Translations under genes and position numbers: made by a program
In this document: piece after piece, positions 3,882 through 52,673 of the stretch
Position numbering within the stretch: position 1 is the stretch's first letter
Layout: each line of letters begins with the position of its first letter
Notes under the pieces: generated by a model
Seen by the model: the letters and a program-made list of their open reading frames with translations, nothing else
Told to the model about the DNA's origin: nothing
Database searches by the model: none
IMG/VR virus record: IMGVR_UViG_2706796186_000001
Coordinates: 96,001-160,000 of that record
Source: a virus
Taxonomy: Duplodnaviria; Caudoviricetes
Reading direction: 5' to 3' (one strand)
Length of the DNA stretch: 64,000 bases

Positions 3882-4167
3882 CATCAATCGTTCTGTCGCG
3901 CGTTCTAAAGAAGTGGTTTACGATGTGGTCTCTGGTGAAAAGACCCTGTTCCGTGCGGTGATTGTCGAGAACAACGAACTGCTCGTGGTCTATCCGGGTG
4001 GCGAGTTCTCTAAAGCGGAAAAGGTGGCACTGGATAAACTCATCACCAAAGCGAAACACCGCGACGGGATTTCTATCCACCGTGTGGTTAATGGTCGTGA
4101 GTTAGTGGAGAATGGCAAAGACTTAGAAGTGCGTCCCGTGAGCACGCAAGTCAACGCCTTTGTATGA
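3871..4167 (+). CDS. Hypothetical protein
   Basis: AAGGAG RBS before the ATG at 3871 (MQTSINRS...). Confidence 0.7.
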   Translation: MQTSINRSVARSKEVVYDVVSGEKTLFRAVIVENNELLVVYPGGEFSKAEKVALDKLITKAKHRDGISIHRVVNGRELVENGKDLEVRPVSTQVNAFV

Positions 4168-4194
4168 CACCACTAACGTTATAGAGGAATCGCA

Positions 4195-4695
4195 ATGGAT
4201 GTTATCGATTTCGAACAGCTTCCACAGCACGACTTCGACCTCGGCGTCCGTGACATGGATTGCGGCTTCGAAGAAAAGGCGCGTGCGCTGTTCCAGAAAT
4301 ACGGCGAACTGATTATGGGTACCGACCATCCAGACATCACACTGGATGAGTTCGAGAAACTGATCGTTGGTCTCATCACGACCCGTGCACAGGACAGAGC
4401 GTTGCTGAACGAGTTGAACTTTACCACCGTGTCCCCCGCGGATGCTGCCGGTATCCTGTCGCAGTCCATCGTGCCGAACGATGAGATTCTCGACAAGGTT
4501 GCTGAGCTACGTGGCCCGTTCGACACAGCGGTAGAAGACTACGCGCAGCAGTTAGCGGAATCGGAATACGCGATGGTCGCCCCTGAGGGTGAGCAGCTGC
4601 CGTCTGATGAGCAAACTGAAACTGCCCGTCTGCGTCTTGCGCGATATGTCATTACCAGCGTGCTGGTTGATGACCGTGAAGATTGTCAGCTCTAA
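4195..4695 (+). CDS. Acidic hypothetical protein
   Basis: GAGGA RBS, 166 aa, followed by a terminator. Confidence 0.75.
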   Translation: MDVIDFEQLPQHDFDLGVRDMDCGFEEKARALFQKYGELIMGTDHPDITLDEFEKLIVGLITTRAQDRALLNELNFTTVSPADAAGILSQSIVPNDEILDKVAELRGPFDTAVEDYAQQLAESEYAMVAPEGEQLPSDEQTETARLRLARYVITSVLVDDREDCQL

Positions 4696-8591: not shown

Positions 8592-9158
8592 ATGAAGTTC
8601 TGGGAGCGTTTTTGTCGCTTGTTTAAAGATGTCCCTGAGGCCCAGTCTGACGGTGACCGTTATACCCAAATCGTGCGTGACTACTTCAATGCAGGTAATC
8701 ACAACGTCGTGGAACTCTGTGATGCTATTGGCATGACACCACGCTCACTGTACTTTGCGGTTAACGACGACAACGTACGGGCGAACATTCTGCCCCGCCT
8801 CCCTGAAAAGATGCGGATGGAATTGCGTGATGAACTGACCGCGCGTGCGTTCAGTCGTCAGGCCGTCTCGTTAATTCGTCCGAGCACCGCGAAGTACGAT
8901 TTCGAAAACCTCAATGAGTTAATGGCACACGTACACCAGTTGTTCGAAACCTACCGCCTCGAACGTGGCGAGAAAGTGGACACCTCTATTAAGGCGTACA
9001 TCCACTCCCTTACACCACGTACCGTGCGTATCGCCTTCGTAGGCGGCGGTCACGAATTCAATGTGGGTATCATTGAAGGTATTAACGTTGTGCAGCAAAA
9101 CCTGCTTATGGTGAATTATGGAAAACTTAACGCCCGTGGAAATCGTCAATGTTTTTAA
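8592..9158 (+). CDS. Hypothetical protein
   Basis: GGAG RBS, 188 aa. Confidence 0.7.
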   Translation: MKFWERFCRLFKDVPEAQSDGDRYTQIVRDYFNAGNHNVVELCDAIGMTPRSLYFAVNDDNVRANILPRLPEKMRMELRDELTARAFSRQAVSLIRPSTAKYDFENLNELMAHVHQLFETYRLERGEKVDTSIKAYIHSLTPRTVRIAFVGGGHEFNVGIIEGINVVQQNLLMVNYGKLNARGNRQCF

Positions 9159-10863
9159 CCGTTATGTCCACGGTCAAGAACTGGCAAAAAAGATGTTGGC
9201 GATTGCTCTGCGTAACCGCGTACGGGTAGCACTGCTACCCCTCGGTGAACGTGACAGTGTTCGCAAACAGAATCTGTTGTTACTGGGGCCAACTGGCTGC
9301 GGTAAAACTGCGTTGATGCGTGTATTGAAGACGCAGTTTGGTTTACCCGTGTTAGAGCTGGACATGACAGGCTTTTCTGAGACGGGCTACGTGGGGCGTA
9401 ATCTCAATACCGTGGGGACGGACTTACAAACCCTCACGCGTTCAATCGCTTTGCCGGACTGGTACGTAGAAATGCGCACCGGGATGCAGCTCGAAAAAGA
9501 CGAGCAGCGCTATACCCGTGAAGAACTCAAAGCGTTAGAAGAAAAAGAGTACGAAGTGGAAAGCGCTGCACGACAGGCGGAATGGGATGCAGGCCGTGAT
9601 GCTAAAAAGCAACACGAACAAACGCTGAAAGATTTAGGCGTGTTCCCGGACGACGATACCTACAATCATTATCGCATGGTCTATTACATGCGTGCGTTTT
9701 TAGTGGGGTATCATGCGTTAAAGAACCTGCCGTACGACGTCATTGATTTCGCGGACATTGAAATGATTCATGGGCAGAAGCTCATTGATGTCGCGAAGAC
9801 TGTGGTTGGTCTTGTCGAGAAGATGGCTGGCAGACCGATCAACAGTATCGATGATCTCAATGAAGATCTCAGCGAGCGCACCGATGAGATGATGGAGAAC
9901 AATCCTGCCTTGTTGGGTGAGTTCATGGGACTGATGGCCTACAACGAAGTGTTGGAAGCCATTATGGAACTTGGCACCGATCGCCTCAGCAGTAACCCGG
10001 CGGCGGCCTGTGTCTCCTCCAGCGATTGGTACGACGTCGCGCACTCTTTCGATGAAGCGGATGAACAGGATATCCCGCCAGGCATTGCTTGGCGTCCGAT
10101 GGACTTCACGGAGTTTGCGCTCTACATCTGTGTGATGTTGGTGCGTGACCCGGAAGGTCTGGAGGAAGTCTTCGAAGACTGTGATGACTTCACCCGCTTC
10201 GCCGACAAGAAACTTTGGAGCTACACCATCCCTAAACCGGAAGTGGTGCAGCCTAAAGGGAAGCGTAATGTGTTGTCGAAGAAAGACCTCGACAAGGTGG
10301 CGAACTGTAATGGTCGCGACTTCGTGGAGAACTTCGGGGTGGTGTTCTTAGATGAGATTGACAAACTCATTGAAACGGATACCACGGGAAGGACACACGT
10401 CTCCCGCAGCGGTGTACAGCGCAGTCTGCTCAAGATGGTAGAAGGCGGCTTGTACGCCGGGATTGACACCACGAACATTCTGTTTGTCGGTGCCGGTTCT
10501 TTCGCAGAAGCGCCTGTTACCAAACTGATGCCAGAACTGCAAGGGCGCTTTACCTTGCGTGCCGAGCTGGAACCGTTGGATAAAGAAGCACTGATTGCGA
10601 TTTGTCGAATGGATAGCAGTGAGTTCCATGCAATGGTTCGACTCTTGCGAATCGAGGGTGTGAAAGTCAACTACGACCTTGACACCTTTGAGTACATTGC
10701 AGAGAAGACCGTTGAAGCGAACTCGGTAGATAACCTCGGCGCACGGCGCTTAGCCGCGATTGTCGAAGCGTTGTTCCAAGACGCGTTGTACGAACCCAAC
10801 AAGTACACGGAAAAAGGTTACGACCTGACAGGTAAAACCCTGCGTGCTAAGGAGAAACCGTGA
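9118..10863 (+). CDS. hslU: HslU-like AAA+ ATPase (ATP-dependent protease subunit)
   Basis: LTPVEIV..YVHGQELAKK..AIALRNR, Walker A GPTGCGKT, pore loop GYVG, Walker B FLDEIDK, GVQRSLL, PELQGRF, NLGARRL. Confidence 0.9.
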   Translation: MENLTPVEIVNVFNRYVHGQELAKKMLAIALRNRVRVALLPLGERDSVRKQNLLLLGPTGCGKTALMRVLKTQFGLPVLELDMTGFSETGYVGRNLNTVGTDLQTLTRSIALPDWYVEMRTGMQLEKDEQRYTREELKALEEKEYEVESAARQAEWDAGRDAKKQHEQTLKDLGVFPDDDTYNHYRMVYYMRAFLVGYHALKNLPYDVIDFADIEMIHGQKLIDVAKTVVGLVEKMAGRPINSIDDLNEDLSERTDEMMENNPALLGEFMGLMAYNEVLEAIMELGTDRLSSNPAAACVSSSDWYDVAHSFDEADEQDIPPGIAWRPMDFTEFALYICVMLVRDPEGLEEVFEDCDDFTRFADKKLWSYTIPKPEVVQPKGKRNVLSKKDLDKVANCNGRDFVENFGVVFLDEIDKLIETDTTGRTHVSRSGVQRSLLKMVEGGLYAGIDTTNILFVGAGSFAEAPVTKLMPELQGRFTLRAELEPLDKEALIAICRMDSSEFHAMVRLLRIEGVKVNYDLDTFEYIAEKTVEANSVDNLGARRLAAIVEALFQDALYEPNKYTEKGYDLTGKTLRAKEKP

Positions 10864-39510: not shown

Positions 39511-40221
39511 TCAGGCGTTTAACAGTGGAATCTGCGTAATCGGTTGACTTAACGGCTGCGGTTCCCAAGTGACCGTTACAGCGTTAAATGCACGCTTGAT
39601 GTTCTGGTAGCGCGCATTCACACAATGGGCGTGTTTCACATCCCAACGTTCATGCTCAGGAATCGCGTTTTCAATCTGTTCACGGAAGAACAGATAGTTG
39701 CGATTGTAGTTCAGCGTGACATCCGAAATTGACGGGTAGCTGTACTGATGCGGGTTATCGTTCTTATCGGCATACGACGGCCAGCCGAAGTTCTTCACCG
39801 CTTCGTAAAACGAGTTGGCGAGGAATGATTCGACCTTCATCATTTCCATAATCCGCAAGAACATCAAATCCGCAAACGGCTTGTCCGTTGCCCGTGACAG
39901 ATTGCCCGCCGGAGTATCCGGGTAGGGTACTGGGGACGGGGCTTTCTGATACAGCAGGTCGTGGATACAGGCAGCTGCCGCCCAAGGGCCATCAGGGTGC
40001 AGAATCGGCTGTAAGGCAGCTGGGATACTCGCCAAGTCCGTGACGAAGCCCGCGGGGGCGGTGACATACATCAGCGTGTCAGGATGAATACCAGAACGGT
40101 ACACCATGTCATCCAAGCCCGGATGGTCACGGTACAATGCCCTCAGCGTAAACGGTACCCGGAAGTCGTCTGTCAGAATGAACCACTGCTTATCTAACAC
40201 TTTATACTTCAACTCGTTCAT
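39511..40221 (-). CDS. DUF1353 domain protein
   Basis: PAGFVTDLASIP..AAACIHDLLY..ADLMFL signature. Confidence 0.8.
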   Translation of the reverse strand: MNELKYKVLDKQWFILTDDFRVPFTLRALYRDHPGLDDMVYRSGIHPDTLMYVTAPAGFVTDLASIPAALQPILHPDGPWAAAACIHDLLYQKAPSPVPYPDTPAGNLSRATDKPFADLMFLRIMEMMKVESFLANSFYEAVKNFGWPSYADKNDNPHQYSYPSISDVTLNYNRNYLFFREQIENAIPEHERWDVKHAHCVNARYQNIKRAFNAVTVTWEPQPLSQPITQIPLLNA

Positions 40222-40334
40222 GAAAGTGCCACCTTAACCATACTGAGCACCACCATGCCTATAATCGACCCCCACAACACATACGCAGGTGGATCATCCT
40301 CGGTAAAGAATTTTGTCGGTACAGAATTGTTCAT
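40218..40334 (-). CDS. 38-aa single-TM protein (absent from ORF track)
   Basis: MNNSVPTKFFTEDDPPAYVLWGSIIGMVVLSMVKVALS; TAAGGG RBS; ATGA overlap with the DUF1353 gene. Confidence 0.6.
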   Translation of the reverse strand: MNNSVPTKFFTEDDPPAYVLWGSIIGMVVLSMVKVALS

Positions 40335-40993: not shown

Positions 40994-41034
40994 AAGAAAA
41001 AAAAGAAAAGCGACCCACCCCCGAAGGAGTGGGT
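40994..41034 (-). terminator. Rho-independent terminator closing the radical SAM operon
   Basis: Minus strand ACCCACTCC-TTCG-GGGGTGGGT plus T-tract. Confidence 0.8.
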
Positions 41035-41039
41035 ACGAC

Positions 41040-41696
41040 TTAGGCTACACCGTTATCCGCAGCAAGCTGCTTAACTGCGGTGAAGTCTTTTTGTTCCGTG
41101 AGGATACGGATGCGTTGTTTCAACACAGACATGACCATGTGCAGGTCATTGTCACGCGTGATGATTTCCGCATAGAGGGCTTTAACGTCCTCCACCGTCC
41201 ACGGCTCGATAGGCTCGTTGTTCAGCGTCATCCAGTACATCGGGTCAACCCCGGACTGCATGTAGCTTTGCATCGATTCGCGCGACTTCTCGTCAGCTTG
41301 GAACGTCTTGTCACGGAAGGTAATGGGTGCAAACCGTTCCGCGTTATACTTGTCGTTCAGTTTCGGATAAATCGCATTGACTTCCTGATAGAGGTAGTTC
41401 TCCGTCGAGGTCAGCGCGGTACGTACGTGGTCTAAATCAATCTCCAGCACGTCAGCAATAAACTCTTTGGTTTTCTTCATCAGGAATTCAATTTCAACCG
41501 GTGACAGGTCAAAGCCTTTGAGTTTCTCGCGGGCTTTCTTGTCACTCATACCGTTAATCAGATGGTAGTGCAGTAGCAGGCAGAACCCGATACGGTTTTC
41601 CATCTGGTCTTGGTATTCTTCCACGTAGTTACCGTAGCGGTCGATACGCGTGCCCCGTTCGAAATAACGGGCTTTTATTTCGTCGTTACTAAGCAT
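41040..41696 (-). CDS. DUF4376-like (tail-fibre-assembly-associated) protein
   Basis: C-terminal FQADEKSRE..WMTLNN..WTVEDVKAL..H..LKQRI pattern. Confidence 0.6.
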   Translation of the reverse strand: MLSNDEIKARYFERGTRIDRYGNYVEEYQDQMENRIGFCLLLHYHLINGMSDKKAREKLKGFDLSPVEIEFLMKKTKEFIADVLEIDLDHVRTALTSTENYLYQEVNAIYPKLNDKYNAERFAPITFRDKTFQADEKSRESMQSYMQSGVDPMYWMTLNNEPIEPWTVEDVKALYAEIITRDNDLHMVMSVLKQRIRILTEQKDFTAVKQLAADNGVA

Positions 41697-42232
41697 CCGG
41701 ATTCTCCTGCAATCCCAAGGTCAACCAGCAGACCGAAGTCAATGAACTGGAAATCATTTTCCAACTCTTCGCCCCAGAGCAGTTTGGCCTCTTCTGCTTC
41801 ATCACCCATCTCTTCCAGCGTCTTACGTGCCACTTCGAATTCGTGGTAGAACGCATCGGTCAGGTGTGTACCGCGTAATGCACGCACAGTCACACCAGGG
41901 AAGTTCAGGGCCAGTCCCACAACGTTGGTTGGGTCTGCATCACCGGTAGAACGGCGCAGTACCTGCAACTTGTGTTTTGGGAACGCCACCACACGTTTTT
42001 CGAAACCGGGATTACGTTTCTCGATTTCGACAACGGACTGGTGATCGTCTTCCACGCCCTGTAAAGGCAGGATGACATTCAGGCCATAACGGTTCAACAG
42101 ACGAATGGTGTCATCGTTGAAATCTTCACCCGGCACGATCGCATGGATGTTGTACAGCTTGTGTTTGCGAATGAACGCATCGACAAGGTGAACGTTACGC
42201 CGAGTAAAATTGTGAATCAGCAATGACTTCAT
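41675..42232 (-). CDS. Hypothetical protein in radical SAM operon
   Basis: 185 aa, overlaps both neighbours. Confidence 0.7.
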   Translation of the reverse strand: MKSLLIHNFTRRNVHLVDAFIRKHKLYNIHAIVPGEDFNDDTIRLLNRYGLNVILPLQGVEDDHQSVVEIEKRNPGFEKRVVAFPKHKLQVLRRSTGDADPTNVVGLALNFPGVTVRALRGTHLTDAFYHEFEVARKTLEEMGDEAEEAKLLWGEELENDFQFIDFGLLVDLGIAGESGCLVTTK

Positions 42233-43541
42233 TCGAGGCTCCGAGTTCTAATTTAAGTTTATCTGCTTTCATGCGGTCACGCACGCAGCTCGCACAGTAG
42301 CACATGGATTTATCGTGCAGGTCGGCGACATTCGTGGTACCGGTTTTCTGATACCAGTATTCGGACACCAACAATTTCGCGGTCGTCCAACCACACTGGC
42401 GTCGCTCAGCATGGTACTCTTTACGCGCTTCCAGCTCGCCGTCACCGTTCTCGTAAGAAGCAGCCGCACAGCTACCGCACGAGTGTTTCATCGGGCAGCC
42501 TAAGCAGGTAGACGGGTAGTTGGTGTACTGCGTCTGAATTTCGTTCAGTAGTTTGTGACCGTCAATGTTCACAATCTCACGCCCACGCAGTTCTGCTACC
42601 GCTGAACGGGTGGTTACGGTTGACATGAAGCGGTTACAGCCGTAAATCTTACGGTCGAAGCCAAGACAGGTCATGTGGGTCAGCGTACCGCAGTAAGGAC
42701 GTACACGGTCTGGGTGCAGACGGGTTGCTTCATCGTCCAGCAACTTCTGACGCCAGTCCGGGTCCCATGTCGCCATGAAGTCCAGCCCATCAGGAATGAT
42801 GTGGGTCAGGATGTTACGTGGTGACTTGTGGTAGCCGTTGTCGACCCAGTAATCGATAACGTCAATCATCTGGTTTGCGATACCCAGAGCCATATCACGC
42901 GACAGAATGTCTTCGTACGTGACGTTACCGGAGATGGTACCACCGCCCGTTTCTTTAATCAGGTGAATCATGCTCTCGCCGTAACGAGGCAGGGTCTCAC
43001 CGGTAAAGGTGGCTTTGATACCGAGTTCTGCAATACCGACAGATTTCAGGTATTGGTAGCCGCGCATCGCCTGCTCGTACGAGCCTTCACGCGAAGTGGT
43101 GAAGATACGATAGCGGTCGTGTACTTCTGGCAGACCATCGATGGACACACCAATCGACAGACGGTCTTTCCAGCGTTCAATGATTTCTTTGCTGATAGGA
43201 CGGTCGAACAAGGTGCCGTTGGTAGAAATAGAGAATACGTACTGGCGGTTGTCGCGCGCCGCTAACTCTTCGGCTGTCTCAAAGACGGCTTTCAGAATCT
43301 TCGGCTGCATAAACGGCTCACCCCCGATGATGTCGATAATGATTTCGGCATCTTCGATGTGACGGTCGCGGTCAAAACACGCATGAATAAAATCGACAGC
43401 GTCATCCACTTTGTTGTTGCGCGGATACTTACGTTCGTAGCAATACGAACAGTCGAGATTACAAGACAGGTTAGTTACGACCTGATACGTGAGTGTGGGG
43501 CGCTGTTTACGCGTCTGCGATGAAGATCGTTCTTCACTCAT
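42195..43541 (-). CDS. Radical SAM/SPASM peptide maturase (CXXX-repeat-target type)
   Basis: CNLDCSYC, IIGGEP, STNGTL, GVSIDG..HDRYR; C-terminal YCG..IYGCNRF..CLGCPMKHSCGSC..QCGW SPASM-like cysteines. Confidence 0.9.
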   Translation of the reverse strand: MSEERSSSQTRKQRPTLTYQVVTNLSCNLDCSYCYERKYPRNNKVDDAVDFIHACFDRDRHIEDAEIIIDIIGGEPFMQPKILKAVFETAEELAARDNRQYVFSISTNGTLFDRPISKEIIERWKDRLSIGVSIDGLPEVHDRYRIFTTSREGSYEQAMRGYQYLKSVGIAELGIKATFTGETLPRYGESMIHLIKETGGGTISGNVTYEDILSRDMALGIANQMIDVIDYWVDNGYHKSPRNILTHIIPDGLDFMATWDPDWRQKLLDDEATRLHPDRVRPYCGTLTHMTCLGFDRKIYGCNRFMSTVTTRSAVAELRGREIVNIDGHKLLNEIQTQYTNYPSTCLGCPMKHSCGSCAAASYENGDGELEARKEYHAERRQCGWTTAKLLVSEYWYQKTGTTNVADLHDKSMCYCASCVRDRMKADKLKLELGASNEVIADSQFYSA

Positions 43542-44431
43542 TTGATTACCTCATTGCGATGTTTGCGAGCGTGGATCGTGCGATTGATGTAACGGTAGGC
43601 TTCTTGCCCAATGACTTTCGCCAGCATGTTACAACCGCTATCGATTTCCATCTCGACATCCATCGTGTAGCCGATAGACGCATCGGAGTCCAGACGAACC
43701 AGACCGCTGCACGCGTTGCACGACTGCTCAAAGAACTTGCTGATGGAGAACCCAGTTGAGCCATTGTTCATGACATTCAGGCGTTCAATCTGGTCTTCCA
43801 TTTTGTTGTAGCCGAACATGAAGTTCATCACCAAATCTTGGTTCAGAGGTTTCTTCATGCGGTTGTCCAACAGCAGCGTCATGTCTTTGAAGCCGTAGTG
43901 GTGGAGTGCGCGGTGTAAGTCCAGCAGGTCAGTGTGCCAATATTTATCAGCCAACTGCTCACGAGTCACCACGGCCCACGTATGGACGTTGTTCAGCGCA
44001 GCCATCACTTCGAAGGCTTCGAATGCACCATCTTCAACGACACGCCAGAGCGGACGTTCGCTCTTTTTGTATCCATCGAACGACACACAGATACGGTTAA
44101 ACTGTTGCAGCATCGGGAGATGTTCCAGACGCATTTTCAGACCGTTCGTGTACAGCTCGTGAGTGAGATGTGGATAACGGGCTTTGACTTCGGCCAGCAA
44201 TGGCTCAATCTTCCGGGTCGCCATTAATGGCTCACCACCCGTCCAGTTCATCCCTTGTAAAGTCGGGTACTTCTCCAGTTGTTCAAACAGCGCTTCACGC
44301 TGAATTTCCCGACCAACATCTTTTGTGTCCATGTAATACGCTCCGCCGCAGAAACTACAATCCAAATTACACTTGGACGTCGTCACTATCGACAGCTCGG
44401 TAGGGGGACGTATTTGTGGTGCATCGGTCAT
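43538..44431 (-). CDS. Second, shorter radical SAM protein
   Basis: CNLDCSFC, WTGGEPL, YTNG, VSFDG; short C-terminal CNAC..GCN; ATGA-coupled to the next gene. Confidence 0.85.
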   Translation of the reverse strand: MTDAPQIRPPTELSIVTTSKCNLDCSFCGGAYYMDTKDVGREIQREALFEQLEKYPTLQGMNWTGGEPLMATRKIEPLLAEVKARYPHLTHELYTNGLKMRLEHLPMLQQFNRICVSFDGYKKSERPLWRVVEDGAFEAFEVMAALNNVHTWAVVTREQLADKYWHTDLLDLHRALHHYGFKDMTLLLDNRMKKPLNQDLVMNFMFGYNKMEDQIERLNVMNNGSTGFSISKFFEQSCNACSGLVRLDSDASIGYTMDVEMEIDSGCNMLAKVIGQEAYRYINRTIHARKHRNEVIK

Positions 44432-44449
44432 TGCAGATTGCTCCAGTTT

Positions 44450-45328
44450 TTAATAGATCGCGAAAAGGGGGTCGTCCTCAAACTTCGCGCCCACATCCAG
44501 AAGGAAATCGGAGTGGTAGGCATCGAGTATTTGATTCAGAACAGCCTGACGGTCGTTAATCCGTTTAAGATCATCGAGTGTCACGCTTCGCGACTTGATG
44601 TTTGAAACTGCCTTTTCTTCGTCAGCTGTTAAGGAAACCTTCGACAGAAGGAAACTTACCAGCTTGCTCAGGTCAGCCTCGGTACCCGGTGCTTCACCGT
44701 AACGCAATTGAACCAAGAACTGCATCCACGGTTTGCGGATACGGCGACTGATTTCATGTGGATCGGTAATCGCTTCGAACTGCCCATCTACCGCATTCCA
44801 GCGAAACTTGTAGCTATACGCCAGTAAGTCAGCCAGACAATGGATACCGAGCGTTTCATAACCTAAGATGTGATGGTATTTTTCCACACCTTTATATTCT
44901 TCCGTGCCGGTCGGTACTACGGTGTACCAGAACGGATTAGAAGACGGGTAGTCCCAGCTCCACTCGCGACGAACCATGGGAATGACGTCCAAATCCGCAA
45001 ACGGCGTGAAGATCATTTCCAAATCCATCGAGTGGTTCAGGACTGCATCAGTAAAGAAATACTTACCGTCAATCAGTCGGCCACTGGCGTTCAGCTCGCC
45101 TTCATTAAACTTCACATGCTGAACAGTGTGCTTACCGATGGAGTAGGTATTCTCTTCGGTGTACTGCTTACGTGTAATATCCCGCCCACGTACCTTAGGC
45201 CATTCGCCTGGCAGCATCGAGATAAGGCGTACTTCGTCAGCGATGTGTGCTTTCACACTGTCGTACGACGAAATGTGTAACGGGAAATTTTGCGTCGTGC
45301 GGTACGCCAAATGGAGGTCGTTCTTCAT
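44450..45328 (-). CDS. Hypothetical protein in radical SAM operon
   Basis: 292 aa with AAGGA RBS, between the precursors and the rSAM genes. Confidence 0.75.
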   Translation of the reverse strand: MKNDLHLAYRTTQNFPLHISSYDSVKAHIADEVRLISMLPGEWPKVRGRDITRKQYTEENTYSIGKHTVQHVKFNEGELNASGRLIDGKYFFTDAVLNHSMDLEMIFTPFADLDVIPMVRREWSWDYPSSNPFWYTVVPTGTEEYKGVEKYHHILGYETLGIHCLADLLAYSYKFRWNAVDGQFEAITDPHEISRRIRKPWMQFLVQLRYGEAPGTEADLSKLVSFLLSKVSLTADEEKAVSNIKSRSVTLDDLKRINDRQAVLNQILDAYHSDFLLDVGAKFEDDPLFAIY

Positions 45329-45346
45329 GGTTTCTTTATCCTTACT

Positions 45347-45556
45347 TTATCGGTTACCCGCGCCGTAACTGCACCCACCACTGCACGACCAGCTACAGCT
45401 ACCGTTGCAGTTATAATGCGAGAGTGGAAGCCCAGCAAGGTTGTTGGTCGAACTGACCGTGCCGCGTGTGGCGATATAGTTATTGGCCTGTGCGGTCGTG
45501 ATGTAGCCTTCGACGTTCTGCACCCGATCGCGAATGTTTTTCAATGAGATTGCCAT
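45347..45556 (-). CDS. Cys-rich CXXX-repeat precursor peptide 3 (short)
   Basis: Leader MAISLKNIRDRVQNVE; core CNGSCSWSCSGGCSYG (4 Cys); GAGGA RBS. Confidence 0.85.
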   Translation of the reverse strand: MAISLKNIRDRVQNVEGYITTAQANNYIATRGTVSSTNNLAGLPLSHYNCNGSCSWSCSGGCSYGAGNR

Positions 45557-45577
45557 AGGTCCTCACTCGATAGAGTT

Positions 45578-45970
45578 CTATCGACTGCCTGAACAGCCAG
45601 AGCATCCCGTACAACTTGAACTACAGGAACCGGAACAGTTACCGGAGCATGTACCCGAACAACCGGAGCACCCACCCGAACACGAACCAGAACATCCTGA
45701 GCACCCACTGGTACACCCAGCAGTACAGCTCGACGAACATGAGGAACCGCAGCCCCCTGATGCCGAACCGGAACAGCCACCTGAACAGCTAGAGCAACCC
45801 CAGCTACAGGTTCCGCCGCAATCGTAATGAATACGTCCTTGGCCGCCGAATAAGTCGACGTTATTGGTTGCCTTATTACGGATGTAGGTTTGTACCCCAC
45901 CTTCCGTTTTTAAGGAGTTCGCTTCGATCACTGCAATGCGATCCGCGATGTTTCGTAAGTTGATAGCCAT
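45578..45970 (-). CDS. Cys-rich CXXX-repeat precursor peptide 2
   Basis: Leader MAINLRNIADRIAVIE; 20 Cys in CXXX/CXX Ser/Gly repeats; GGGAG RBS. Confidence 0.9.
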   Translation of the reverse strand: MAINLRNIADRIAVIEANSLKTEGGVQTYIRNKATNNVDLFGGQGRIHYDCGGTCSWGCSSCSGGCSGSASGGCGSSCSSSCTAGCTSGCSGCSGSCSGGCSGCSGTCSGNCSGSCSSSCTGCSGCSGSR

Positions 45971-45979
45971 TGTTTCTCC

Positions 45980-46369
45980 CTACTGTGGACCAGAGCAACC
46001 AGAGCAACCGGTGCAGCTGGAAGAACACGACCCGGCGCAACCACCGCCACACTTACCACTGCACGAAGACGCACAGGTACCTGAGCAACCTGAACAACCC
46101 GAACACCCACCGCCGCAGTTAGAAGAACAGCTACCCACGCACGTAGAAGTACAGGTTCCTGCACAGCTAGTACAGCTTGCAGAACACCCGTTAGAACACG
46201 ACCAGCTACAACTGCCGCCACAATCCAGACGGGAGGGAGACCACCCACTGAACGAGTCCGCAGCGTTGTAAGCTTTCGATGCAACCTGCCCGTCTACACG
46301 AGCCCCGGTAGCATAGTTTGCTTCCACATTGTTAACGCGGTCGCGTATGTTTTTCATTGAAATCGCCAT
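45980..46369 (-). CDS. Cys-rich CXXX-repeat precursor peptide 1
   Basis: Leader MAISMKNIRDRVNNVE; 21 Cys in CXXX/CXX repeats; AAGGA RBS. Confidence 0.9.
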   Translation of the reverse strand: MAISMKNIRDRVNNVEANYATGARVDGQVASKAYNAADSFSGWSPSRLDCGGSCSWSCSNGCSASCTSCAGTCTSTCVGSCSSNCGGGCSGCSGCSGTCASSCSGKCGGGCAGSCSSSCTGCSGCSGPQ

Positions 46370-46405
46370 ACGTTTCCTTTGTCAATAAAAAAATGAGGAC
46401 GCTGC

Positions 46406-46431
46406 CATAATGACAGCACCTCATGTAATAA
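46406..46431 (-). promoter_or_regulatory. Putative middle-type promoter of the precursor/rSAM operon
   Basis: TTATTAC-N15-TATG on the minus strand, overlapping an imperfect hairpin plus T-tract. Confidence 0.6.
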
Positions 46432-46434
46432 GTG

Positions 46435-47634
46435 TTATCGTGAACCCGCTTCGGCTTGTACGTCGTCGCGAGAAGTCAGGCTGCTGTTGACGTGTACTGC
46501 CGCCTGAACCACACCGCCGTACTGCTTGTGGAGATAGTTCGGGTGTGGGTTATCTGCGTTAACGTGGTTCTGGAGATTCTGCGACAGGGTGTTAATGGAG
46601 TTCTGCAATCCAGCAACTTGCTGTTTCAGTGCATTCAGCTGACCAGAGAGATCCTGAATCTGCTGCTGCGTATCGGAACCGGCGGATTCCAAATCACTGA
46701 TGCGCTGCTTGAGCCCATTGATGACTTGGTTCTGGTCATTGATCATCTTCTGGAGTTGTAACACCAGAGAGTTCAGGTCGGCCTGTTGTAACGCCGCCTT
46801 TTGGTAGTTCAATGCCACCGAATTCAGTTGGTCATTCCACGAACCGAGTGCACTGACCACCGCATCGATACGCGCACCGAGTGCTGTGTCCGCTGCTTTC
46901 AAATTACCGATGTCAGCGAGGACAGCGTTAATGGCAGTCTGAACCGTTTGAATCAGCGCGCGAATTTCGGTTTCAGTGAGACCGTTCGCCTGATGAATAT
47001 CCAGTGCGTGAACATTACCTTTGGCATCGATGTGCGATTGTAGCGCCGCCATCATCTGGGTTTGCATGTCAGACATGGCTGCCAGAATCTGCTGGAGCTG
47101 AACTTCGTTACCGGAGTTAATCGCATCGGTCATCAACGCGAGTTGCGTAATGATGTATTCGAAACCAAACAGGTCGCCGAGGTCTTTAAAGGCCGGAGCC
47201 GCTGCAAAGGTATCCGGGACATTACGCAGGTCAGCGAAGTCAACTTTGCGGTCTTCAAGGTTGGCATCAGCCAACGCCTGTTTAATCGCAGAGATAACCG
47301 CCGACTGTGGGCCACCGACAACCTGTGCAAGACAGACGATATCGGTTGGGATAGCCGGGTTAGTGACGACCACACCCATACAGATTTCGCGGTTCTTAGC
47401 AAGCTTCATGTACGCCGGATGGATGTAAATCAGCTCGTAGTCGGTACCGCGTTTATAAATGGTGTTGGGTTGATTGGCAGGCCGCATACGGAACGTATCC
47501 GCAAAGAACGGCCCTGCTGGGAAAGCGAACGCACGGTTGACCTTCCCCCCACCTAACACAACCGGGACATTGACCGCGTTACTGGACGCAGCCCCTGTCA
47601 GGTCAAGTGGGTATTGAAATAGAATATCTGGCAT
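46435..47634 (-). CDS. Putative baseplate/tail-fibre-associated coiled-coil protein
   Basis: YPLDLTG..GPFF..GTDY N-terminus shared with upstream fibre genes; long Gln/Leu heptads; HVNADNPHPNY motif; GGGAG RBS favours ATG 47634. Confidence 0.7.
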   Translation of the reverse strand: MPDILFQYPLDLTGAASSNAVNVPVVLGGGKVNRAFAFPAGPFFADTFRMRPANQPNTIYKRGTDYELIYIHPAYMKLAKNREICMGVVVTNPAIPTDIVCLAQVVGGPQSAVISAIKQALADANLEDRKVDFADLRNVPDTFAAAPAFKDLGDLFGFEYIITQLALMTDAINSGNEVQLQQILAAMSDMQTQMMAALQSHIDAKGNVHALDIHQANGLTETEIRALIQTVQTAINAVLADIGNLKAADTALGARIDAVVSALGSWNDQLNSVALNYQKAALQQADLNSLVLQLQKMINDQNQVINGLKQRISDLESAGSDTQQQIQDLSGQLNALKQQVAGLQNSINTLSQNLQNHVNADNPHPNYLHKQYGGVVQAAVHVNSSLTSRDDVQAEAGSR

Positions 47635-47681
47635 GGCCAAACTCCCTTAGTGAGACGTCCTTGTCTCGACGTGTTAGATGG

Positions 47682-50600
47682 TTACGGCAACTTAGGCATA
47701 AGATTGACCGTCAGTTTTGACGGGGTGACCGTTCCGCCGTAATAGTTGACCCCGTTGCCGATGTACAACGCGTTGTCGGCAATAAGCATGGGTATCGGTT
47801 GGCGGAAGATGACATCTCCATGAACAATCGGGAAATAATCATCGATGGAAACACCTGCTGGCATGGCGACTTTATAAACATCAAGCACACCACCAGTGAT
47901 ACGCCCCGCCGCACCCTGTACGTTCGTTATGGCACGAATGGCCACAGTAGCAGCATCGGAGATATAGAACACCGTCGCTGTGCCGTTATCCACGTTGGAG
48001 ACACTGAACGCAGCGAACGCGGTGGTCTGACCCCCGTTGATACCATTAAACACGAATGTGTTTTTGACCCCCACCTCGGCAGCAAGTGTGACCTCAGCCA
48101 GTGCAGAAGAAAACGTTGCAGAAACATCGAGGTTGGCGTTGGTACATCCAATGGTGCCGGAGCCCAAAGAGTAACCACTCTTCAATTTGATTTTCACCGT
48201 CGGGGTCGACGGGGTAATCTCCACAATCATTTTCCACGCAATCGAGATGACAGCCGACATCCCCGGAATACCCACCAAATACGCATTGTCTACATCAGAA
48301 GCCTGACCAAAGTTGGCACCCTTCATCGTGAACTTCTTGTAGTCTTTAGGCAAGGTAGCGACCGGCGCATCCCGCAGCAACTCGATAGGAACCTTGTGGC
48401 TTTGAGACGCGAAGACCGGGCCAATCTGCGACATATCCAGATACCCATCACCGGTAGCCGCCGGAGCAGAAAGGGGTTGCTTACGCAATAGCCCCAGTCG
48501 CGAAAGCCGCGCTTCACTGTCCACATTCACATCGTGGCTGTAGACCGTGGCGGTATGCTCCGCCAACTGTTTCAACTCGCCCAAGCGTTTCACTTTTGTG
48601 AACTCAGACGACAAGATACGCTGACTGTCGGTGACTACCGTCCCGATAAACAACCGGGTATCCGTATCGGGCATTTTCTGCGTCAAAAGCTGGTATTCCG
48701 GTTTGCCGTTCACCACCGCCGCGTGCATGTAGAACGTACGGTTTTGGTACGCACCGGGGAACAACGTCTTGAGGTTCTGGTTATACGCATCCAACGTGTA
48801 ATAGTCGGAACCAAACCGTAAGCTCTCAGACTCGGTGATGTACAGCTCCCACCCTTCTGCGGTTTTTACCCCAGCAACGATTGCAACATTCCCCGCAGGG
48901 GTGTAGTTTGTCACCCCTGCCGCAACAAAGTCGTTCGGTGGTGCGCTTGGGCCTGCGAAATAAGACGGTGAAATCACCTGCCCGTTTGACCGCAGCATTC
49001 GCTCCCCAACAAACGAAAGGATGGTAGCATAGTTGTAAAACGTGCTGCCGAGCACCCCCGCCTTCGTCGCCGTCAGCTTACCTCCGTTCAAACTGAAAAT
49101 CAGCTCAAGGTGGTACGCCGCGGATGACCCCACGACCTGCCGAATCATGAAGTTCGGCAAGTGCATGATGCCCGTACCGTCACCTTTCTCGTAGAAGATT
49201 GGTTGGCCCATTCTGCTGCTGTGCCCAGAATAGTTGGTATTCTGAATGAGTTGCAGGTTGCTGTACGTCGCGATGTTGGTGTATACAACGTCAGCTGTGG
49301 TCGTGACCAGCTGAACAACCCCGTTCACGACGCTCGGGTAGATTTGGAACGTAACATTCCCTAACCGCTTATTGCCGTTATAGAGTGCGTAGTACGACAT
49401 TTGTGCAATCCAAATCGGATTGGCATCAAGGGGTCGAATCGCCCACACGGAAAAGAGGAGGTTAATCGGGTTGGCAATGCTGTCCGCCACCTCACCTGCC
49501 GGTGCTGCCGCTTTTAAGGCCGCCGTTATCTTGTTCCATGTGTCGGAGGACAACGTAAGGGTATCGGCTTTTGGTACCGCACCCACGGCCTGGTACCGCT
49601 TCACACCGGGACCGTTCCAATACGCGCCGTTTAACTTACCCGACTGGAGCGTGGATGTCGCACACCACGTCATGTCTGCCAAAGCGTAGTAATCGTCAAC
49701 CGAGAAATTGCGGCGCACGTTACTCGGCCCTGCGCCCAAGTACGCGGGACCGTATGTTGTGTTTGGGTCTACCTCGACATACACCGCGCTGTTGGCGTTG
49801 GCGGGACTAAACAGATACGCATTATTGCCCAGATACACCGGATGGGATTGACCGACAGAATACACCGAGCCAATACCGCCCGTGAACTGCCAGTTCGCCA
49901 GAGAGGTGTAACCGCTTTTGTGGTCTCCTGCGATAAAGTCGTAGAAGTCCGCGTCCATTGTCGAGTGTGCTAACCCGTTGGGGAGGGTGTCCTGAGACTG
50001 ATCGTAAATAGACCATGCACGTTGGCCAACCCCTTGGAACACCCGCATGCGGTTATCAGCATTGCCGTACGGGAACCGAACTTTCCAGCCTGCCTCTTTG
50101 AGCTTTGTCCCAGTGGCAAGATACACATCGTCCGCATCGATTTTGAATGGGAAGATATCTGCATTATCCAGCGAGACCGTCAACGTATCCATGTCAATCT
50201 GGAACGAAGTCGCCCAAGTGAAACGGCCATACGAGTCATCAGGGCTCAACAATAACAGGGTGCTCAAAATACCTACCCTGGTCATGTTCTCGCGCTGCGC
50301 TACCGCATACGTCGCGATGTTGTGTGCGATGTTGCGCAGGTTACCCCAGCGTACTTTACCGGCCTCGGTCACATAGGTGGTGCCCTGTGTCGCAGGGTCG
50401 GTCGCATCGGTGTCTGTGTTAGCGCGCAGCAACACTGAGATACCGTTGACGCTGTTCCCCCCTTTGAGAGCAGCAGGGGTGTAAACCATCTTGTCCCCAC
50501 TGACTGACCCTACTAACGCATAGACACTGTACTGGGTATTGGTCAATTCCAGATGAAGAATGTAGACCTTCCCTTTATACACGATGGTTTGTTCGCGTGT

Positions 50601-52673
50601 CTGATCGCCGAGGTAGCCACTGACCGTGCCGTTCGCGTCGAACGAGGCAGGGAATTCACTCCGATACACCTGTTTGTGTTTGGTGTAGTTCAGTGTTCCT
50701 TCTAGCATGACTGTGTAGAAATATCCGTCGCTGCCTAAACAGACAAGTGCCGCATCGCCTGACGCAACCAGTGTGAGTAGCCGGACACCGGGATACTTAC
50801 TCATTCCCGCTGGGTGGTATGGGAACGACGTCTGCTGCTCCCCTGCAATTGACCCATCGTTGTTTACACGGGCATAGCCGTAGTAAATGCGATCGGTGTT
50901 CGGCAATCCGTCGTTTGCATTGCGTAACAGGTAAACGATGTCTCCTTCCTGCTTGACTGCCCCCAACCCTTTCCAGCTCAGCTGTTTCGCAAAACCGGCA
51001 AAATTCCCCACCGTTGGAATAGGCAGGAACCCACTGTTACCGTACGAGGCACCCCCAGTCGTCCACGACGGCAACAGACCGTCCAACACGTCTTTGTACG
51101 TATTAAGGCGCTGTTGTACGTTATAGCCCTGCTTTGACGTCACCACTTTGTTCGTGGTGGTATCAATCGCATCCCACAGTTGCAACAGACCTGCGTCCGT
51201 ATCAGACGCCGTTGGTACGCCCGTCAGGTCGGCAAACGTGTGCGTGTGGTTTGCCAGAGCCTTATTTGCCAACACCGCACGAATGGCGTTGGTCAACGGT
51301 TTCTCAGCAGGCGCGGTGTTGTTGATGTTACCCACACCTAAATCGGCGGTCGTTAAGGTAAGGGACTGTTTCGTACCGTCATCAATGAACTTCTTCCCGT
51401 TAATGGTGTACGTGTTGTCCACGTAATCATCCAGCGTCTTTTTCAGGACGTTAACAGCATACTGCGAAATCGCGGTACCCGAAGAAATATTTGCAGACAG
51501 GTTGGTGATAGCAAACAGCCCCGGCACTTTGTCAGTTGCCGTGGGCAGTTGCGCGTTCATGGTCAGTGGAGAAGACTGCTTCGCTGTACCGAATACCTTG
51601 ATGGTGTCGGTTGGAGAAAAGTAAGCGTTCCCCGGTAAGAGTTTTACTTCGGACAGGTACAACGAGACCATGTCCGGTGTGACCAGATATGCACCGTTAA
51701 AGATGGGTGCCACTGCGCCGTTGAGCACATAAGCCGTGTTCAGCCCCGAGCCCAACTCAACCCCCACACCCCGTTCGTTACTGTCTGCATCAGCAGTGAT
51801 GTTGATAGCACGGGTGGTGGTAATAAGGAACTTATCGCCTTGCAGGGTGATAACATGGCTCGAGTCGGCGGTACGGAATGTCAACGCACCGTTATTCAGC
51901 ACCTTGAGGCGACCACGCAGTTCACCAAGCACCACAGGCATCAGGGTATCGATGTGAGCTTGCTGAATGCCGTTTGCTTTCATGATAGCGACTAACTCAT
52001 CCAGCGTTTTACCGAATGCCTTCGTCGAGTCTACCGCTTTGGTCAGTACCTTTAACGCCCCAATCTCATCCGCAGTGTATTGGTGTGCGTTTTTGATACG
52101 ATGGTGGCTGTACATGTTGTCGTCGAAAATCTTTTTACCGTTGGCAAAAATCAAATCGGTGACCTCGGCGTACGCCACATCCATATCGCCTGCCCGCTTA
52201 ATCAAACCTTGACGGATATCATCCAGCGCTTTCACGACTTCATCGCGGAGCAGGGCTTCATCTAAGTTGGCAGGTGGGTCAATTGCAGGAACCACTGGTG
52301 CATAACGCATCAGTTCAGACCAGTCGGTGTTACGCGGGTCTTTGATGTCCTCTTTCACCAAGAACTTGCCAATCTCGGTCTGTGGTACGCGGTATTCGCG
52401 ACCAATCGAATAGATCGTGTAGTCAACAGAGGTGTCTCCGTTAATCAACATAATCCCGCCGTAGATTTGGTCTTTCATTGCGACAGCGGCTTCTTTATAA
52501 TAGTAGCCGAGGTAGTAATCCAGACCCTCAATGAGCTTCACGCCTGCGCTGTTTTTCAGCTCAAGCCCGGTACGGAAGAACGGCCCCTCAGGAGGGATGA
52601 CCACATTGTATTTGTTCGGATATGTGGTCGTCAGTAGCGTACCGGTAAATTTGGCTACGTTCGTGCTCGCCAT
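47682..52673 (-). CDS. Large tail-fibre-like virion protein
   Basis: 1663 aa; GPFF..GLDY N-terminus, NAH, LGVGNINNT, HTHTFADL fibre motifs; beta-rich C-terminus. Confidence 0.7.
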   Translation of the reverse strand: MASTNVAKFTGTLLTTTYPNKYNVVIPPEGPFFRTGLELKNSAGVKLIEGLDYYLGYYYKEAAVAMKDQIYGGIMLINGDTSVDYTIYSIGREYRVPQTEIGKFLVKEDIKDPRNTDWSELMRYAPVVPAIDPPANLDEALLRDEVVKALDDIRQGLIKRAGDMDVAYAEVTDLIFANGKKIFDDNMYSHHRIKNAHQYTADEIGALKVLTKAVDSTKAFGKTLDELVAIMKANGIQQAHIDTLMPVVLGELRGRLKVLNNGALTFRTADSSHVITLQGDKFLITTTRAINITADADSNERGVGVELGSGLNTAYVLNGAVAPIFNGAYLVTPDMVSLYLSEVKLLPGNAYFSPTDTIKVFGTAKQSSPLTMNAQLPTATDKVPGLFAITNLSANISSGTAISQYAVNVLKKTLDDYVDNTYTINGKKFIDDGTKQSLTLTTADLGVGNINNTAPAEKPLTNAIRAVLANKALANHTHTFADLTGVPTASDTDAGLLQLWDAIDTTTNKVVTSKQGYNVQQRLNTYKDVLDGLLPSWTTGGASYGNSGFLPIPTVGNFAGFAKQLSWKGLGAVKQEGDIVYLLRNANDGLPNTDRIYYGYARVNNDGSIAGEQQTSFPYHPAGMSKYPGVRLLTLVASGDAALVCLGSDGYFYTVMLEGTLNYTKHKQVYRSEFPASFDANGTVSGYLGDQTREQTIVYKGKVYILHLELTNTQYSVYALVGSVSGDKMVYTPAALKGGNSVNGISVLLRANTDTDATDPATQGTTYVTEAGKVRWGNLRNIAHNIATYAVAQRENMTRVGILSTLLLLSPDDSYGRFTWATSFQIDMDTLTVSLDNADIFPFKIDADDVYLATGTKLKEAGWKVRFPYGNADNRMRVFQGVGQRAWSIYDQSQDTLPNGLAHSTMDADFYDFIAGDHKSGYTSLANWQFTGGIGSVYSVGQSHPVYLGNNAYLFSPANANSAVYVEVDPNTTYGPAYLGAGPSNVRRNFSVDDYYALADMTWCATSTLQSGKLNGAYWNGPGVKRYQAVGAVPKADTLTLSSDTWNKITAALKAAAPAGEVADSIANPINLLFSVWAIRPLDANPIWIAQMSYYALYNGNKRLGNVTFQIYPSVVNGVVQLVTTTADVVYTNIATYSNLQLIQNTNYSGHSSRMGQPIFYEKGDGTGIMHLPNFMIRQVVGSSAAYHLELIFSLNGGKLTATKAGVLGSTFYNYATILSFVGERMLRSNGQVISPSYFAGPSAPPNDFVAAGVTNYTPAGNVAIVAGVKTAEGWELYITESESLRFGSDYYTLDAYNQNLKTLFPGAYQNRTFYMHAAVVNGKPEYQLLTQKMPDTDTRLFIGTVVTDSQRILSSEFTKVKRLGELKQLAEHTATVYSHDVNVDSEARLSRLGLLRKQPLSAPAATGDGYLDMSQIGPVFASQSHKVPIELLRDAPVATLPKDYKKFTMKGANFGQASDVDNAYLVGIPGMSAVISIAWKMIVEITPSTPTVKIKLKSGYSLGSGTIGCTNANLDVSATFSSALAEVTLAAEVGVKNTFVFNGINGGQTTAFAAFSVSNVDNGTATVFYISDAATVAIRAITNVQGAAGRITGGVLDVYKVAMPAGVSIDDYFPIVHGDVIFRQPIPMLIADNALYIGNGVNYYGGTVTPSKLTVNLMPKLP

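Follow-up and report, generated by a model that had tools for sequence, protein, structure and literature searches.

Cysteine-repeat proteins encoded beside radical SAM enzymes in an SPN3US-like jumbo phage: candidate fibre-type structural proteins rather than peptide precursors

A 64,000-nucleotide stretch of tailed-phage DNA (IMG/VR record IMGVR_UViG_2706796186_000001, positions 96,001 to 160,000; hereafter the window, in whose numbering coordinates are given unless a locus is named) carries three small consecutive genes, whose products we call A, B and C, upstream of two radical S-adenosylmethionine (SAM) enzymes of 297 and 448 residues. Each product begins with a segment of about 50 residues and then enters a cysteine-containing core, and the question raised by the locus is whether these are precursors of RiPPs (peptides that ribosomes make and that are modified post-translationally), from which a leader would be cut once the core has been modified, or proteins that keep their N-terminal segment. 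In our view A, B and C are, with fair probability, structural proteins of a minimal fibre type with a cysteine tip matured by radical SAM enzymes, and not classical RiPP precursors. To judge from comparison with relatives, the N-terminal segment is probably a short retained fibre shaft, made up of a helix and a junction; by analogy with related enzymes, the tail, with its cysteine at every fourth residue, is probably cross-linked by the two adjacent radical SAM enzymes. The three genes and the parts of their products on which the argument turns are as follows.

45980..46369, minus strand: protein A, 129 residues, candidate mini-fibre with a 21-cysteine CXXX-repeat domain (core 45983-46222); phrog_6085, E 1e-48
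45578..45970, minus strand: protein B, 130 residues, candidate mini-fibre with a 20-cysteine CXXX-repeat domain (core 45581-45820); phrog_6085, E 1e-50
45347..45556, minus strand: protein C, 69 residues, an A/B-type N-terminal region followed only by CNGSCSWSCSGGCS (core 45350-45409); phrog_6085, E 4e-29
46313..46363, minus strand: residues 3-19 of A, predicted amphipathic helix with 3-4 hydrophobic spacing, RVNNVE at 46322-46339; from the alignment, with a low-confidence AlphaFold 2 helix at residues 5-20
45914..45964, minus strand: residues 3-19 of B, predicted amphipathic helix as in A, RIAVIE at 45923-45940; from the alignment
45500..45550, minus strand: residues 3-19 of C, predicted amphipathic helix as in A, RVQNVE at 45509-45526; from the alignment
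46202..46264, minus strand: junction of A, AADSFSGW...LDCGGSCSW, an element common to full-length fibre proteins; from the alignment and the leader profile
45800..45865, minus strand: junction of B, NNVDLFGGQ...HYDCGGTCSW; from the alignment and the leader profile
45389..45451, minus strand: junction of C, STNNLAGL...HYNCNGSCSW; from the alignment and the leader profile

Re-reading the sequence bore out the description given in the original prediction: three paralogous minus-strand open reading frames (ORFs) with the N-termini quoted there, a first cysteine at residue 50 in A, 51 in B and 50 in C, totals of 21, 20 and 4 cysteines, respectively, and a C-terminal ending, CSSSCTGCSGCSG, shared by the cores of A and B. 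The paralogy and the fixed length of the N-terminal segment (for convenience, the leader) are far beyond chance. Cysteines in A and B are spaced almost exclusively by 4 or 3 residues, giving CXXX and CXX repeats in cores composed of S, G, C, T and A. Each of the proteins is a member of phrog_6085, a family with no assigned function (E 4e-29 to 1e-50). They are encoded by real genes, because across relatives the proportion of nonsynonymous differences (pN) is 0.06-0.26 against a saturated synonymous proportion (pS) of 0.68-0.86; this holds for leader and core alike, the core being under as much constraint as the leader. Searched alone against Pfam, NCBIfam and PHROGs, the leaders matched phrog_6085 and nothing else; a word-indexed protein search with leader A gave no match, a hidden Markov model of the leaders, run on the complete six-frame ORF set of this phage, recovered just the three copies in A, B and C, and the cores had no match in Pfam at E up to 10. 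In the alignment of relatives, there was no consistent site for either of the leader cleavage signals considered, the A-x-E site of the SPN3US prohead protease and the double-glycine.

Conservation of the triplet is what first separates A, B and C from a set of interchangeable precursors. All 27 SPN3US-like loci that were read, covering five genera as well as uncultured contigs, hold A, B and C once each in unchanged order, and the order is also kept in the divergent contigs L030, L034, L035 and L038 (L and P numbers are our handles for loci and proteins). Leader identity is 58-63% between orthologues as against 34-37% between paralogues, even inside one genome, so that A, B and C constitute three separate orthologue groups. 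The A-type protein has exactly 21 cysteines in the window, in the 14 SPN3US-like loci tallied and in L030. C-type proteins of relatives have 2-5 cysteines or a further domain at the C-terminus; P0016 and P0005, which come from separate lineages, stand in the normal C position and carry an extra C-terminal extension of 80 or 140 residues, and no homologue or family was detectable for the C-terminal domain of P0005. In RiPP clusters with several precursors, the leaders are usually near-identical and it is copy number and cores that vary; the A/B/C family shows the reverse of this pattern. As a separate observation on the divergent L035 cassette, a gene of the Acb2/Tad1-hairpin type (an anti-CBASS/Thoeris sponge) lies just upstream of it, at L035 7848-8069.

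A connection to fibres emerges from the relatives of the 448-residue enzyme. Outside the jumbo-phage clade, its nearest relatives have 31-39% identity to it, and all five contexts sampled for them are tail or neck-fibre modules of phages or prophages, in four of which a fibre-type protein ends, at its C-terminus, in the Cys-repeat domain. A P2-like prophage of Campylobacter pinnipediorum (L040) encodes a 384-residue fibre with an N-terminal Pfam Phage_tail_fib domain (PF12571, E 1.8e-40) and 11 terminal cysteines; a Deferribacter prophage (L039), a 302-residue protein with HxH/YYTE (Y-T-E) fibre repeats, 29 cysteines and a match to phrog_6085 itself (E 4e-12); and two metagenomic phages, a 258-residue fibre with HxH / Y-T-E repeats and a Cys-repeat C-terminus (L046) and a 568-residue fibre encoded beside a T4 gp13-like neck gene and having a precomputed PF27846 match (L044). 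Directly before the repeats, these fibres and A, B and C have in common a junction, N-x-x-x-L-x-G-Q-x(4)-Y-x-C-x(1-3)-C-S-W. The leader profile hits the fibres at exactly this point (E 3e-6 to 5e-4), with no match to any other ORF in those loci; the part of A, B and C that is homologous to the fibre junction is the second half of the leader together with the CxGxCSW start of the core. The gene that follows the fibre gene encodes a helper similar to phrog_8030 in L039 (hhalign 97%) and, as judged by reading the sequence and left unscored, in L046 and L042, and in the fibre cassettes a long/short pair of radical SAM genes comes after this helper. In each of the cassettes examined, which come from unrelated types of phage, Cys-repeat proteins co-occur with at least two radical SAM genes. 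The prophage fibres with a Cys-repeat C-terminus contain no recognisable self-cleaving module of the S74 type. Because there are three orthologue groups in fixed order, because the junction is homologous to that of fibres, and because some C-type proteins are extended at the C-terminus, the suggestion of the original prediction that the N-terminal ~50 residues are a retained structural segment, and not a cleaved leader, is strengthened. In the fifth context the repeat is separate from the fibre: L042 and L043 contain, at about 4021-4248, an unannotated 76-residue CXXX-repeat ORF with 18 cysteines, whose start overlaps (as ATGA) the stop codon of a 577-residue T7-tail-like fibre gene and which is followed by a phrog_8030-like gene and then two radical SAM genes.

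The same prediction had also pointed to R-h-x-x-h-E, reported by Kammerer and colleagues in 2005 as a motif for trimerisation in short coiled coils. RVNNVE in A, RIAVIE in B and RVQNVE in C do all lie at residues 11-16, and the 401-residue protein encoded upstream does carry RISDLE, at residue 313. The motif sits in the heptad register g-a-b-c-d-e of an amphipathic helix, but hexapeptides of this form are found in the phage proteome (~75,700 residues) about as often as chance would provide (18, against 16.6 +/- 3.2 in shuffles), and in the L035 clade it is replaced. Among 38 relatives, positions 5, 8, 12 and 15 are hydrophobic in 37-38, as is an aligned column at about residue 19 (18-20 depending on paralogue type) in all 38; 32 retain R11, 33 have E or D at position 16, and the strict motif is present in only 17. 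The N-terminal amphipathic helix, at ~17 residues, spans only about two heptads. Given the chance frequency, the 17 strict cases, the L035 clade and the shortness of the helix, R-h-x-x-h-E alone is weak evidence for trimerisation. The leader profile offers a further pointer, in that its residues 1-34 resemble the repeat unit of the virion fibre protein P0018 (E 1e-8 as the sum of some ten repeats), a unit of the type x-R-h-x-x-h-E-x-A-G-Y-Q-T-x-x-Q-V in a protein whose gene context is head-tail-adaptor/tail-fibre, and R-h-x-x-h-E-like units are also repeated in the virion fibre protein P0027; because each unit alone is a weak match, we treat this likeness as supporting only. A profile match to the RTX-like protein P0017 was judged a chance resemblance summed over repeats and was set aside. 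A 149-residue protein that ends a four-radical-SAM cassette at L038 12966-13415 also has a leader-like helix start (MADKFSEVLQRLTRLESYI), followed by coiled coil and by a terminal domain that matches tail-fibre PHROGs (E 1e-5), without a Cys repeat, and is a possible fourth paralogue among the mini-fibres.

We now turn to the surroundings of the triplet. The phage is a jumbo phage of the SPN3US-like group with a genome of 240.8 kb, and window positions 42195-47640 share 97% identity with Salmonella phage pSal-SNUABM-04 and 96% with Erwinia phage pEa_SNUABM_43, of the genus Machinavirus. The further features of the locus are listed here.

44450..45328, minus strand: helper protein of 292 residues, placed after the fibre gene in each cassette; phrog_8030, E 6e-160
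43538..44431, minus strand: short radical SAM enzyme of 297 residues, without a full SPASM domain; Pfam Radical_SAM, E 2e-11; phrog_1802
42195..43541, minus strand: radical SAM/SPASM-type enzyme of 448 residues, without an N-terminal RiPP recognition element (RRE); nearest to CXXX-repeat and PapB/CteB maturases
41675..42232, minus strand: accessory protein of 185 residues, kept in divergent cassettes; phrog_7988 match
41040..41696, minus strand: DUF4376 protein, the operon's last gene, present in some but not all cassettes; Pfam DUF4376, E 7e-10
46398..46420, minus strand: terminator-like hairpin with T-run between the gene for the 401-residue protein and A; hairpin prediction
41013..41034, minus strand: terminator-like hairpin after the DUF4376 gene, at the operon end; hairpin prediction
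46435..47640, minus strand: coiled-coil protein of 401 residues, homologue of SPN3US gp167 and candidate docking partner; phrog_2163, E 1.5e-110
47682..52673, minus strand: baseplate/tail-fibre protein of 1663 residues, homologue of SPN3US gp168; SPN3US comparison

The operon (46369 to 41040, minus strand) runs in the order A, B, C, 292-residue helper, 297-residue radical SAM enzyme, 448-residue radical SAM enzyme, 185-residue protein and DUF4376 protein, with small gaps or overlaps between genes; it is bracketed by the two terminator-like hairpins and has the gp167 (401-residue) and gp168 (1663-residue) homologues as its upstream neighbours. No protease or exporter is recognisable in it by Pfam, NCBIfam or PHROGs, two of its proteins being without a known family. 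The best NCBIfam match of the 448-residue enzyme is TIGR04115 (E 1.6e-36), at 126.6 bits and thus short of the 350-bit cut-off; the match to the PapB family (E 3.6e-36) is likewise below its curated cut-off, and TIGR03906 follows at E 3e-18. The nearest solved structure is that of CteB (5WGG, E 2e-12). Because the alignment begins only at CteB residue 104 and the CxxxCxxC motif of the phage enzyme already lies at residues 27-34, the enzyme lacks the N-terminal RRE of ~100 residues found in CteB. For the 292-residue helper, an AlphaFold 2 model with a mean predicted local distance difference test (pLDDT) score of 87 had no meaningful fold match in Foldseek searches of the PDB, VIA-align wide, BFVD and the ESM Atlas, and fold comparison matched it to no RRE, protease or known chaperone; it could still be a leader-binding protein of a new kind. 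In two uncultured SPN3US-like contigs (L012 and L013, 3392-4303), a third radical SAM gene (303 residues; Pfam Radical_SAM, E 2e-13) is inserted between A and B.

Downstream of the operon, a DUF1353 protein (E 2.3e-16; 39511-40221, minus strand) adjoins a GH108 lysozyme gene. In the Campylobacter prophage, too, a DUF1353 gene (L040 8068-8433) directly follows the radical SAM pair, and L038 and L029 have one near the cassette; such a gene may be a recurring neighbour of the Cys-repeat/radical SAM module. Between the DUF1353 and lysozyme genes, a 38-residue ORF with one hydrophobic segment (40218-40334, minus strand), termed 'hypothetical' in relatives, may encode a lysis-related membrane peptide.

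The virion proteome of SPN3US provides a view of which of these proteins reach the particle. The homologues of the two enzymes and of the 292-residue, 185-residue and DUF4376 proteins (gp161-165) are not among its 86 virion proteins, whereas gp167-173 are (PMC5694885, Suppl. Table 1); gp165, the homologue of the 292-residue helper, is absent from the virion, and gp167 is a non-head virion protein with an SC/M of 1.9 (PMC5694885). The text of that paper places gp161 in paralogue family B of head proteins, whereas its Suppl. Table 1 gives gp160 (18.5 kDa) there; the mass favours the table, and the DUF4376 protein gp161 therefore does not count among the reported virion proteins. A, B and C themselves lack annotation in SPN3US (L003, JN641803), where they occupy 9001-10030 (9001-9393, 9404-9808 and 9824-10030), and what is called gp166 there (L003 9477-9812) overlies B in the wrong frame. 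The same applies in many GenBank records, in which annotators often miss A, B and C or call the opposite or a shifted frame.

From these observations a route by which the proteins might be made and used can be sketched. The operon would be expressed late in infection and would yield the three small proteins, the phrog_8030 helper, the two radical SAM enzymes, the phrog_7988 accessory protein and the DUF4376 protein. In each small protein, the N-terminal amphipathic helix of ~17 residues would gather chains; next would come the junction N-x-x-x-(L/F)-x-G...(Y/L)-x-C-x-G-x-C-S-W, homologous to that of full-length tail fibres; and the C-terminal CXXX-repeat domain would form the distal tip. The chains would probably number three. 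Because the gene triplet invariably holds one of each, an A:B:C heterotrimer is the most economical guess and the one we favour, although homotrimers of each could also form. The 448-residue enzyme, having no RRE of its own, would probably hold its substrate by way of the helper, the junction or both, and would most likely turn cysteines into intrachain thioether rings, as CteB and PapB do, with the short enzyme supplying a second chemistry or acting on a subset of sites. The N-terminal part would remain on the protein, and the modified protein would become part of the particle, perhaps attached to the gp167-type fibre; the enzymes and helpers would not go with it. We infer thioether formation from the relatedness of the enzyme only, by analogy, and the virion location and docking on gp167 from gene context; the oligomeric state is of the same conjectural kind. 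Taken in full detail, as a heterotrimeric mini-fibre of one A, one B and one C, seated on a gp167-type tail fibre and tipped with about 45 thioether rings made by the two radical SAM enzymes, the picture is tentative, and we would sooner expect at least one of its parts to be wrong.

Several observations weigh against a fibre role for A, B and C. The 448-residue enzyme scores far below the NCBIfam cut-offs, and for this reason the thioether chemistry is an analogy. Neither the whole proteins nor their leaders match a tail-fibre family or baseplate-attachment domain in Pfam, NCBIfam or PHROGs, and the likeness of the helix to fibre repeats is a sum of individually weak matches. AlphaFold 2 modelling of monomeric A from a 38-row alignment reached a pLDDT of only 44, with helices at residues 5-20 and 23-38 (pLDDT 50-61) and an unstructured core. 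In the L035 clade the helices keep the amphipathic spacing without the R...E pair, and the cassette is not adjacent to tail genes; in L042 and L043, the Cys repeat is a separate 76-residue ORF, in which only ~13 residues precede the repeats. Finally, A, B and C are in no reported virion, although the SPN3US proteome was blind to them, since their ORFs lack annotation and the frame called as gp166 is not that of B.

Some of these same points suit a classical RiPP pathway, in which the 50-residue leader would only guide the radical SAM enzymes and then be removed, either by a protease of the host or by a phage protease that has escaped recognition, and free polycyclic Cys-ladder peptides, set loose by lysis, would act as an antimicrobial, a signal or a metal chelator. 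The layout is that of the textbook, with several precursors that have a common N-terminal region followed by a SPASM-type maturase akin to the CXXX-repeat, PapB and CteB enzymes; the operon is its own terminator-bounded unit, and the distance of the L035 cassette from tail genes, the very short N-terminal part of the L042 peptide and the lack of A, B and C from virion proteomes would all be expected. Such a pathway nevertheless sits badly with a Cys domain and junction that end fibre proteins of 258-568 residues encoded with the same enzyme set, with leaders that are three separately kept types and no single common tag, with low-complexity S/G/T/A cores whose cysteine count is fixed and which are not hypervariable, and with C-type proteins that bear C-terminal extensions of folded size; nor was any RRE, protease or transporter recognised by Pfam, NCBIfam, PHROGs or the CteB alignment. 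On balance we regard a classical RiPP pathway as unlikely.

The radical SAM-cross-linked Cys-repeat proteins could instead serve assembly only, as a transient nucleator or scaffold for the folding of gp167 or gp168, which would make them a separate-chain analogue of intramolecular chaperones with no place in the mature particle. Their genes do lie where tail-fibre chaperones usually lie, between fibre genes and the DUF4376 gene, the neighbouring non-fibre proteins of the cassette are all absent from SPN3US virions, and phage fibres often require C-terminal nucleation; in the prophage fibres, however, the domain is the covalent C-terminus of the fibre itself, with no recognisable S74-type self-cleaving module that would remove it, and a fixed 21-cysteine length in three conserved types is ill-suited to a transient scaffold, so that we give this role little credence. 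It would be more surprising still if A, B and C were unmodified metal- or iron-sulfur-binding proteins comparable to metallothioneins, with free cysteines and with radical SAM enzymes that act on some other substrate. A cysteine content of 26% together with S, G and T, and the CXXC/CXXXC spacing, do resemble what is generally known of metal-binding proteins, but the constant company of at least two radical SAM genes in cassettes of unrelated phage types, and the fact that the best family matches of the enzyme are Cys-targeting peptide maturases, make this very improbable. We therefore continue to favour retained, fibre-type structural proteins.

Among known systems, the pairing of enzyme and target looks most like the catalogued CXXX-repeat radical SAM system (TIGR04115, with targets TIGR04114/TIGR04118 and PF27846), a likeness of sequence that falls short of the curated score. 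As in A and B, the targets there have a cysteine at every fourth residue and are encoded near a SPASM-type enzyme (here, the A and B genes lie ~1-2 kb upstream of the enzymes); the phage locus differs in its two enzymes, its two helpers of unassigned function, its fixed set of three paralogues and its setting in a context of phage fibres. A and B match no NCBIfam target model and C reaches only E 0.09 with TIGR04118; the relatives L044 and L036 have precomputed PF27846 matches. We know of no published biochemistry of this system, and a literature search found none; nor did the search find a paper on radical SAM-modified fibres, on the CXXX-repeat system in phage fibres, or on these SPN3US genes. 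By structure and family, the radical SAM core closest to that of the 448-residue enzyme is that of the ranthipeptide/sactipeptide maturases PapB and CteB (5WGG), which form thioethers from cysteine sulfur to carbon in repeated Cys motifs. The phage enzyme differs from CteB by the missing N-terminal RRE of ~100 residues, the cores of A, B and C differ from PapB substrates in having no Asp/Glu acceptor of the CX3D/E kind, and the product here would probably be a protein domain and not a released peptide. A precedent for a retained product is QhpC, a small Cys-rich chain that receives thioether cross-links from the radical SAM/SPASM enzyme QhpD and is kept as the gamma subunit of quinohemoprotein amine dehydrogenase. 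The 448-residue enzyme matches QhpD (TIGR03906), the homology being distant, and QhpC differs in that it is part of a periplasmic enzyme, has a cleaved leader and few cross-links, and has no fibre context.

Fibre systems offer parallels in gene order and in the fate of the helpers. P2 gpH/gpG and T4 gp37/gp38 are arranged, as here, with fibre, helper and then further genes; the Campylobacter relative has a fibre with the P2-type N-terminal domain; and phage fibre chaperones are absent from virions, as are the SPN3US helper and enzymes. In contrast to the P2 and T4 fibres, A, B and C have only 69-130 residues and no attachment domain, and their tip is a low-complexity Cys ladder in place of a folded receptor-binding domain; unlike the P2 and T4 chaperones, the 292-residue helper has a fold that matches no known chaperone.

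If the fibre interpretation is correct, this would be the first virus to use RiPP-type radical chemistry for its own particle, probably at a receptor-contacting or protease-resistant fibre end, and the same device would recur in phages and prophages of many unrelated kinds. An entire class of RiPP-like radical SAM cassettes in phages would then be systems for the maturation of virion fibres, and not natural-product pathways, and enzymatic carbon-sulfur cross-linking would join the known means by which phage particles are stabilised. Since many GenBank records, that of SPN3US among them, lack A, B and C or call them wrongly, existing proteomic datasets can be searched again at once, and since amber-mutant tools exist for SPN3US, the CXXX-repeat radical SAM family would gain a genetically tractable model. 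For the SPN3US-like phages used against Salmonella and Erwinia, the tip would represent an unstudied type of fibre end, with a bearing on both host recognition and the robustness of the particle.

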